DNA of 20,168 bases, from the IMG/VR virus record IMGVR_UViG_3300033153_002015, positions 1 to 20,168 of that record. One strand, 5' to 3'. Numbering within the stretch: position 1 is the first letter of the stretch; every line of letters starts with the position of its first letter. Both the position numbers and the translations under genes were made by a program. Source of the stretch: a virus. The notes under the pieces were generated by a model that made no database searches, was not told the origin of the DNA, and was given only the letters and a program-made list of their open reading frames with translations. Shown one piece after another: positions 17,541-17,689 of the stretch.

Positions 17541-17614
17541 TTGTCTCGGGAGGGCTCGAACCTCCGACCTCCCAGGTGCTTACGCTGGTTGCTCCACCGC
17601 TGAGCTACGAGACA
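17541..17614 (-). tRNA. tRNA gene with a non-canonical 9-nt anticodon loop. Identity undetermined
   Basis: Minus strand: TGTCTCG TA GCTC AGCGGTG GAGC A ACCAG CGTAAGCAC CTGGG AGGTC GGAGG TTCGAGC CCTCC CGAGACA A, then CC. The 7-bp acceptor stem (U1-A72), the D arm with GG and the T arm (TTCGAGC loop) are all perfect. The anticodon stem has only 4 Watson-Crick pairs (CCAG/CTGG) closing CGTAAGCAC. There is no Y-U-NNN-R loop in register. Confidence 0.7.
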
Positions 17615-17615
17615 T

Positions 17616-17689
17616 TGGTGGGGTAGGAGGGAATCGAACCGCCCGACGCACCGCTTAACACGGCCGCTCTAACACTGAGCTACTACCCC
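17616..17689 (-). tRNA. tRNA-like gene with an encoded CCA and irregular D loop, T stem and anticodon arm. Anticodon ambiguous
   Basis: Minus strand: GGGGTAG TA GCTC AGTGTTA GAGC GGCCG TGTTAAG CGGTG CGTCG GGCGG TTCGATT CCCTC CTACCCC A CCA. The acceptor stem is perfect. The D loop lacks the GG pair, and the T stem has a C.C mismatch. The best anticodon stem (G.U + CCG/CGG) leaves no nucleotide 26 and gives the loop TGTTAAG. It starts 4 nt after the PTH2-like stop and ends 1 nt before the next tRNA. Confidence 0.55.

Follow-up and report, generated by a model that had tools for sequence, protein, structure and literature searches.

A 20,168-nucleotide (nt) stretch of phage DNA (IMG/VR record IMGVR_UViG_3300033153_002015, positions 1 to 20,168; this whole stretch is the window below) carries two adjacent tRNA genes, here called tRNA-A and tRNA-B, whose anticodon arms miss the usual length of 17 nt by two nucleotides in opposite directions. 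Our best explanation, which we hold with roughly even confidence and which is judged from sequence, is that the two would be transcribed relics of a larger tRNA cluster that decode very poorly or not at all.

ARAGORN predicted exactly two tRNAs in the window, both on the minus strand: 'tRNA-Stop(tta)' at 17616–17689 and 'tRNA-Leu(aag)' at 17539–17614. Infernal with the Rfam tRNA family RF00005 returned 17619–17689 (minus, 47.0 bits) and 17541–17614 (minus, 46.8 bits), with E values of about 2e-7 each. Both genes pass the RF00005 gathering score of 29 bits and form all acceptor and D-stem pairs (7/7 and 4/4), and both have a UUCGA T-loop and a 7-base-pair (bp) Watson-Crick acceptor stem. With scores far above chance, they are genuine tRNA genes at these coordinates. 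Their scores of ~47 bits lie at the low end of the range for the tRNAs of relatives (40–72 bits), and a relaxed Rfam scan near the pair found no weaker tRNA remnants. The elements concerned are, in order of transcription:

17616–17689, minus strand: tRNA-A, 74 nt with an encoded CCA (17618–17616) and discriminator A (17619); anticodon arm of 15 nt, not 17.
17654–17660, minus strand: anticodon loop UGUUAAG of tRNA-A on the 4-bp stem GCCG/CGGU; the alternative is a 5-nt loop GUUAA closed by U.G.
17615, minus strand: spacer of 1 nt, from the CCA of tRNA-A to position 1 of tRNA-B.
17541–17614, minus strand: tRNA-B, 74 nt, with CCG next and so no encoded CCA; anticodon arm of 19 nt, not 17.
17576–17584, minus strand: 9-nt loop CGUAAGCAC of tRNA-B, closed by CCAG/CUGG.
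17490–17535, minus strand: terminator-like element with a 12-bp stem GCGCAGGGUAAU/GUUACUCUGCGC and a small internal hairpin, then UUUU; it begins 6 nt past tRNA-B.

An earlier reading of this stretch, made from the letters alone (the sequence-only reading), had described two back-to-back tRNA genes 1 nt apart, with perfect 7-bp acceptor stems, TTCGA-type T loops and non-canonical anticodon arms. ARAGORN and Infernal bear this out, since neither program assigned a standard anticodon arm to either tRNA. Where ordinary 7-nt loops from the covariance model would have spoken against that reading, Infernal placed two deletions in tRNA-A and an 8-nt insert in tRNA-B. Canonical elongator geometry, that is, a 17-nt arm with a 5-bp stem and a 7-nt loop, U33, a purine at position 37 and 8 nt between D-stem and anticodon, is failed by both, and each anticodon varies with the register in which the arm is read: UUA, GUU or UAA for tRNA-A, and AAG or UAA for tRNA-B.

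The sequence of tRNA-A is 5'-GGGGUAG UA GCUC AGUGUUA GAGC G GCCG UGUUAAG CGGU GCGUC GGG(C)GG UUCGAUU CCCUC CUACCCC A CCA. ARAGORN draws its anticodon arm as a 4-bp stem with the loop UGUUAAG, which gives the anticodon UUA and G33, while a stem drawn as GGCCG/CGGUG leaves the molecule without nucleotide 26; the sequence-only reading had found this same loop, the anticodon TTA and the lack of nucleotide 26. Infernal treats positions 31–32 as deleted and aligns U33-GUU-A37-A38 as an Asn-like arm. At minimum free energy the molecule folds into a cloverleaf whose anticodon stem has 5 bp, closed by U.G, and whose anticodon loop has 5 nt. The energy of the whole molecule is −26.6 kcal/mol with the 5-nt loop, −24.0 kcal/mol with the 7-nt loop and −15.7 kcal/mol in the canonical 5' frame, where the loop GUUAAGC and the anticodon UAA sit on a stem that had rightly been called poor. 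The D-loop AGUGUUA keeps G18 and has a U in place of G19, a partner in the elbow pairing with the T-loop. The T-stem GGG[C]GG/CCCUC contains a bulged C or a C.C mismatch, its 5' strand being longer by one C than in canonical bodies, for example that of the tRNA-Phe of locus L171 (GCGUCGGGGGUUCGAUUCCCUC). Both of these defects, the missing GG of the D-loop and the T-stem mismatch, had been noticed from the letters alone. tRNA-A thus carries three independent lesions in three domains (an anticodon arm 2 nt short, G19U and the extra C of the T-stem), and its discriminator is A73, against G73 in the tRNA-Asn genes of relatives.

tRNA-B reads 5'-UGUCUCG UA GCUC AGCGGUG GAGC A ACCAG CGUAAGCAC CUGGG AGGUC GGAGG UUCGAGC CCUCC CGAGACA A, followed by CCG. 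Its acceptor, D and T arms are canonical, with fully Watson-Crick stems (7/7, 4/4 and 5/5), G18 and G19 in the D-loop (AGCGGUG) and a G15-C48 pair, and the body is of class I. The anticodon arm consists of the four Watson-Crick pairs CCAG/CUGG, with A.G above and C.C below, and was described in the same way in the sequence-only reading (CCAG/CTGG with an outer A.G, closing 9 nt). Reading from the only T of this loop had given the anticodon AAG with C37, which is also the register of ARAGORN: a C31.C39 mismatch and the 7-nt loop G32-U33-AAG-C37-A38. Drawn with this 7-nt loop, the helix is one layer too long, 2 nt separate the D and anticodon stems, and the variable region has 6 nt. Infernal takes the loop as an 8-nt insert state. 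No register of tRNA-B has both U33 and a purine at position 37, as the lone U is followed by AAGCAC. The arm is identical at 14/17 nt to that of a class-II tRNA-Leu(AAG) in the related locus L167, a match that is suggestive and not significant after ~40 comparisons, and the two bodies are unrelated.

Loop collapse was considered as a further argument and rejected. In silico, the loop of tRNA-A shrinks to 5 nt and that of tRNA-B to 4 nt; about 36% of canonical arms collapse likewise in the nearest-neighbor model, which makes the collapse uninformative.

The two genes share the pentamer UAAGC at identical positions (standard positions 34–38, counting from the 5' end; 17578–17608 versus 17653–17683), so that the canonical 5' frame would give both the anticodon UAA, G37 and C38. 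This could be a coincidence or reflect a common origin of the arms.

The rarity of these arms was gauged against the ARAGORN predictions from all fetched loci, 791 tRNAs (785 for register distances), many of them from phage-like arrays. The distance from D-stem to anticodon is 8 nt in 95.5% of the 785, compared with 7 nt in tRNA-A and 9 nt in tRNA-B; the distance from anticodon to T-stem is mostly 11–12 nt, compared with 12 nt and 13 nt, respectively. The combination of tRNA-A (7 + 12 nt) occurs in 5/785 and that of tRNA-B (9 + 13 nt) in 0/785. Many other register outliers of the baseline are artefacts of D-stem assignment by ARAGORN, and both tRNAs are genuine outliers, in opposite directions. 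At the loop positions, the baseline has U33 in 716/791, C33 in 72/791 and G33 in 3/791, and a pyrimidine at position 37 in 24/791. The G33 tRNAs of loci L255 and L283 showed no relation to tRNA-A.

The C33 tRNAs of the baseline are an observation of their own. Among the matches listed, six metagenome loci (L199, L265, L192, L252, L269 and L276) hold high-GC arrays of 10–26 predicted tRNAs each, a quarter to two-fifths of which have C33; where checked (L199 and L265), these mostly encode CCA, and the C33 tRNAs have proper 4–5-bp stems and 7-nt loops. The loops include Asn CCGUUAA, Pro UCCGGAC, Leu UCGAGAG, Glu CCUUCAA, Val GCGACAG and Tyr CCGUAAC. Between close relatives, U33 and C33 toggle within one isotype: for Leu(CAG) and Ile(UAU), L199 has C33 where L265 has U33, and the reverse holds for Gln(CUG). 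C33 is also found in the tRNA-Ile (2105–2177; loop CCGAUAA; Rfam 58.6 bits) of L001, the locus with the closest TerL to that of the window. Searching the literature turned up no paper on phage tRNAs with C33.

The 1-nt spacer between the two genes implies a dimeric precursor. The region just downstream (17545–17440, minus) folds at −56.9 kcal/mol with z = −5.8, and 0/200 shuffles were equally stable. Within it, the hairpin followed by UUUU at 17535–17490 looks like an intrinsic terminator; a simple promoter/terminator scan gave no match and overlooked this element because its hairpin loop exceeds 8 nt. A second stable hairpin without a U-tract lies at 17486–17445 (minus), and together the two hairpins span 17445–17535.

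The pair was not found outside the window in any of the collections searched. Against GenBank phages, megablast and blastn gave generic tRNA similarity only. Patterns with fixed D-arm and T-arm and a free anticodon arm had no match in IMG/VR, and register-specific arm patterns run against IMG/VR and GTDB (~186,000 species genomes) produced chance matches that were not tRNAs by ARAGORN. A scan of JGI metagenomes for the tRNA-A/tRNA-B junction, a pattern that was too generic, gave ordinary tRNA pairs and no homologue among the matches listed (at least 120 loci); these loci fed the baseline above. At the protein level, a single-sequence TerL search had no match, a TerL profile detected 164 related loci at ≤50% identity, none of them with the pair, and looking up the closest TerL and VWA relatives by exact protein led to L001–L004, L165–L168 and L291–L293, in none of which the pair was present. 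These nearest relatives are metagenome assemblies.

What the relatives carry differs from locus to locus. In L001, the nearest by TerL (76% identity), a tRNA-Ile(GAU) with C33 that is unrelated to the pair lies some 1 kb upstream of the TerL gene; no tRNAs were found in the TerL relatives L002, L004 and L291–L293. L165 (VWA protein 73% identical) has the same layout from the VWA gene to the ParB-methyltransferase gene, and the pair is absent from it. L166 and L167 (VWA 62–63%) hold 21 and 19 tRNAs, respectively, downstream of the VWA gene, including Asn(GUU) and Leu(AAG). All of these ~40 tRNAs have U33, the arms that were checked are of standard length, and apparent 9-nt loops proved to be 31.39 mismatches inside standard-length arms.

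L166 and L167 are two related phage contigs from different sources, and a comparison of their arrays showed that the atypical tRNAs are the most conserved members. A 71-nt class-I-shaped 'tRNA-Tyr(GUA)' (L166:4217–4287 and L167:7046–7116) scores below the Rfam gathering score and has a D-stem of 3 bp and four Watson-Crick pairs in its anticodon stem; its two copies are 100% identical. Identity is 99% for a Thr(UGU) with the mismatch U31.U39 (L166:9035–9110 and L167:12136–12211) and 96% for an Asn(GUU) with the loop CUGUUUC (U37, C38; L166:9112–9186 and L167:12213–12286). Canonical neighbors in the arrays are 64–97% identical, with a median of ~85%.

We also analyzed the window for signs that either tRNA is used in recoding. 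TAA is the stop of 7/20 window genes, including those for TerL, the capsid protein and a 1513-amino acid (aa) head protein; readthrough would extend TerL by 133 aa and fuse several adjacent genes. Downstream open reading frames in the same frame follow TAG and TGA as often as they follow TAA, and none of the 20 window genes was found to be interrupted by an in-frame TAA. One candidate for programmed TAA readthrough, at position 2682 (an open in-frame extension across an 87-nt gap), was rejected, because the gap is an ordinary intergenic one that also occurs in L002 and L004. There is no ochre recoding here, because TAA is a frequent genuine stop without in-frame use. The sequence-only reading had likewise judged a strong ochre suppressor unlikely from the stops of TerL and the capsid gene. 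Phages with recoded stop codons have TAG or TGA recoded, depleted as a stop and present in frame (Borges et al., bioRxiv 10.1101/2021.08.26.457843). The likeness of the window to such phages with their suppressor tRNAs lies in the tRNA-Stop and UUA label that ARAGORN gives to tRNA-A; it differs in that TAA ends those seven genes without in-frame use and in that the UUA reading, which appears in the ARAGORN register only, needs G33 and a 4-bp stem. In the 20-kb window no gene was seen that would require a +1 shift or quadruplet decoding, and the lengths of its open reading frames match those of homologues in L001, L002 and L004. With the anticodon arm masked, body similarity gave mixed nearest neighbors and no isotype for either tRNA.

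The window (61% GC) covers a phage head and packaging module with all genes on the minus strand. The landmarks around the pair are, in order of transcription:

18413–19528, minus strand: VWA-domain protein, transcribed first; small ORFans, the two tRNAs, more small genes and a DUF968/HNH-like protein follow.
14610–15884, minus strand: ParB-N6/N4 methyltransferase, after the DUF968/HNH-like protein.
12506–14020, minus strand: TerL, with stop TAA.
10280–12100, minus strand: portal protein.
5418–9959, minus strand: 1513-aa Mu-F/minor-head fusion protein, with stop TAA.
3076–4203, minus strand: major capsid protein, with stop TAA; head-completion genes follow.

The pair thus sits in a variable, ORFan-rich segment with the VWA gene on one side and the ParB-methyltransferase/terminase module on the other. 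Its downstream neighbor (16855–17238) is an ORFan that matches only itself among 5.8 billion proteins. Since this neighbor is an ORFan and relatives differ in tRNA content at the site, the pair appears to lie in a fast-changing, lineage-specific segment, at a site where relatives keep tRNA clusters.

Three further observations concern the neighboring modules. In the 1513-aa protein (5418–9959, minus), only the N-terminal ~300 residues match minor head and head-morphogenesis families of the Mu-F/SPP1-gp7 type; its homologues are far shorter (957 aa in L001, 817 aa in L004 and 297 aa in L002), which implies a large C-terminal extension in the window. Upstream of the terminase gene, relatives have a PTPS (QueD-like) or TAGT (Pfam PF20691) protein beside a ParB_N protein (L004:1011–1463; L292:1743–2648), and the window has at the corresponding place the ParB-N6/N4 DNA methyltransferase fusion (14610–15884). 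We take TAGT to be DpdA-like, and the PTPS/TAGT and ParB_N genes presumably point to 7-deazaguanine DNA modification in these relatives. Past the TAA stop of the gene at 816–1739 (minus), the frame stays open for all 271 codons left to the window end (1–815); the annotated next gene (326–811) lies in a different frame, and the open frame is probably an overlapping-frame effect of high GC content.

Because neither tRNA can present its anticodon in canonical geometry, we consider a relic that decodes very poorly or not at all the most likely explanation. Transcription would probably run on from the upstream genes through the pair and stop at the hairpin-UUUU just past tRNA-B, and RNase P together with 3' trimming would probably free the two as a dimeric precursor. 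tRNA-A looks like an NUU-type (Asn- or Lys-like) tRNA after loss of nucleotides 31–32, which would leave either a 4-bp stem with the UGUUAAG loop or a 5-bp stem with a 5-nt loop. tRNA-B would be a molecule with a Leu(AAG)-like arm, C31.C39 and C37 that has gained one nucleotide on each side, which would push its loop outward from the body by one helical layer, the equivalent of a 9-nt loop. The source may have been a cluster like the ~20-tRNA arrays that more distant relatives have downstream of the same VWA gene. Mutational damage, the simplest account and one that the sequence-only reading did not weigh, is favored because tRNA-A has lesions outside the anticodon arm and because the pair is absent from the closest relatives.

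With phage tRNA clusters and dimeric precursors (the T4 and T5 regions; L166 and L167), the pair shares tight spacing, the coding strand and one encoded CCA, and it lies downstream of the same VWA gene where L166 and L167 carry 19–21 tRNAs; unlike those arrays, it consists of two genes only, both with arms of the wrong length. tRNA pseudogenes resemble it in their moderate covariance scores, in multiple lesions (tRNA-A), in the lack of conservation and in the variable region in which they lie. In contrast to pseudogenes, the pair has unusually intact stems outside its anticodon arms, above all in tRNA-B, and is followed by an apparently functional terminator.

Several points weigh against decay. 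tRNA-B is almost flawless outside its arm, and tRNA-A keeps a perfect acceptor stem and its encoded CCA; dead DNA is usually purged from compact phage genomes. Both length changes fall in the anticodon arm, which makes up ~23% of a tRNA; this confinement hints weakly at selection on the body and freedom or novelty in the arm. As the odd tRNAs of L166 and L167 are their best-conserved ones, oddity does not equal decay in this group. The lineage is also poorly sampled (nearest TerL 76%), so that missing homologues are weak evidence.

Atypical but working decoders are a possible alternative that we regard as unlikely. tRNA-B would then read CUU/CUC (AAG, possibly with I34) through a 7-nt loop that has U33 and sits on an anticodon helix with one layer more than usual, and tRNA-A would read AAC/AAU (GUU) or, weakly, ochre (UUA). 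ARAGORN does give tRNA-B a 7-nt loop with U33-AAG, and the body of this tRNA is intact. The arm likeness to the L167 Leu(AAG), the presence of Leu(AAG) and Asn(GUU) in the arrays of relatives and the strong conservation of atypical tRNAs there all agree with decoding, as does the frequent use in window genes of CUC (146), CUU (49) and AAC (139); the counts of the codons that match the possible anticodons (these three, AAU 19 and UUA 3) are unremarkable. However, tRNA-B has C37, its loop is closed by a C.C mismatch, and its register is without parallel in the baseline; bacterial tRNA-Leu is of class II, not class I, and body similarity supplies no isotype. Against tRNA-A as a decoder stand its 4-bp stem, G33 or else a loop of 6 nt, the missing G19, the bulged T-stem and A73 where tRNA-Asn of relatives has G73, and ochre reading would collide with TAA as a frequent genuine stop.

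A role without decoding seems to us likewise doubtful. The pair could act as a decoy or competitor for host tRNA-targeting nucleases or tRNA-binding enzymes, or as an element for processing and stability, with RNase P and 3'-end maturation marking off and shielding the transcript of the upstream operon; either role would free the anticodon arm to change. The parts that RNase P, the CCA-adding enzyme and tRNA-binding proteins read are indeed intact (the acceptor stem and T-loop in both, the T-stem in tRNA-B) and the anticodon arms altered, and the pair stands at the very end of a transcription unit, directly before the strong hairpin-UUUU. A growing literature on phage tRNAs in defense evasion (PMC10264068, PMC11464382 and PMC11555353) and the loop peculiarities of relatives (C33 in the tRNA-Ile of L001; the conserved odd tRNAs of L166 and L167) point the same way. 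A decoy for anticodon nucleases, however, should retain the recognized loop rather than destroy it, and in tRNA-A the missing G19 and the T-stem bulge would weaken elbow recognition by RNase P. The pair is conserved in none of the relatives examined.

For escape from nucleases, a published study discusses loop mutations in otherwise annotated phage tRNAs, its main text being silent on insertions, deletions and loop size (van den Berg et al. 2023, eLife, PMC10264068). The window pair resembles such nuclease-insensitive tRNAs in being phage-encoded and departing from the standard in the anticodon loop; it differs in that arm length itself shifts by 2 nt either way and loop geometry is not retained. 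The T5 tRNAs that counter defense systems, tRNA-Lys against PARIS and tRNA-Tyr against a retron effector, reportedly keep standard loop geometry. Of the interpretation in the sequence-only reading, the structural part stands, and the functional ideas (nuclease escape, frameshift suppression, decoy) are unsupported here though conceivable: nuclease escape is an analogy to the published mutations rather than a match, no window gene needs a +1 shift or a TAA readthrough, and no homologue was found that would show the odd arms to be conserved.

That the two are deliberately non-standard tRNAs kept for a purpose, as tRNA mimics or unconventional decoders, is in our view quite improbable. As mimics, the short and long arms might be uncleavable or trapping ligands for host tRNA-targeting defense nucleases; as decoders, a class-I, Leu(AAG)-like tRNA whose anticodon helix has six layers might stand beside a weak ochre or frameshift suppressor. 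Such a purpose would fit the tendency of this phage group to atypical anticodon loops, seen in the C33 tRNAs and the conserved odd tRNAs.

It is very improbable that tRNA-B is a natural frameshift suppressor whose 9-nt loop reads a 4- or 5-base codon for a gene needing a +1 shift. The loop as drawn resembles the expanded loops of engineered or selected quadruplet and quintuplet decoders (the sufD/sufJ type and the selected 9-nt-loop quintuplet decoders). Unlike those, tRNA-B can also be drawn with a 7-nt loop closed by a C.C mismatch, and the window, which is part of the genome only, contains no interrupted or shift-needing gene. In classical frameshift suppressors the loop has 8 nt, with U33 and a purine at position 37, a combination that no register of tRNA-B provides. 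Errors of assembly or sequencing that struck two ordinary tRNA genes are hardly credible: the window comes from one metagenomic contig, and its proteins were met on no other, but the long open reading frames are intact (up to and including 1513 aa), which argues for a low indel error rate, and the changes do not affect homopolymer length and could be repaired only by three or more separate indels and additional substitutions within 150 nt.

The pair belongs to an already known kind, aberrant phage tRNA genes. The ARAGORN labels 'tRNA-Stop(tta)' and 'tRNA-Leu(aag)' are no evidence for stop suppression or codon supplementation and are unfit as annotation; if the genes are merely damaged, the pair amounts to a small annotation caveat. 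The C33-rich arrays and the best-conserved atypical tRNAs in the related arrays may be a more productive lead than the pair itself. If the two are functional, they would be natural tRNAs that work, in or outside translation, with anticodon arms two nucleotides off the near-universal 17 nt, and would bear on the arm geometry tolerated by the ribosome and by tRNA-targeting immune nucleases, and on why phages carry tRNAs.

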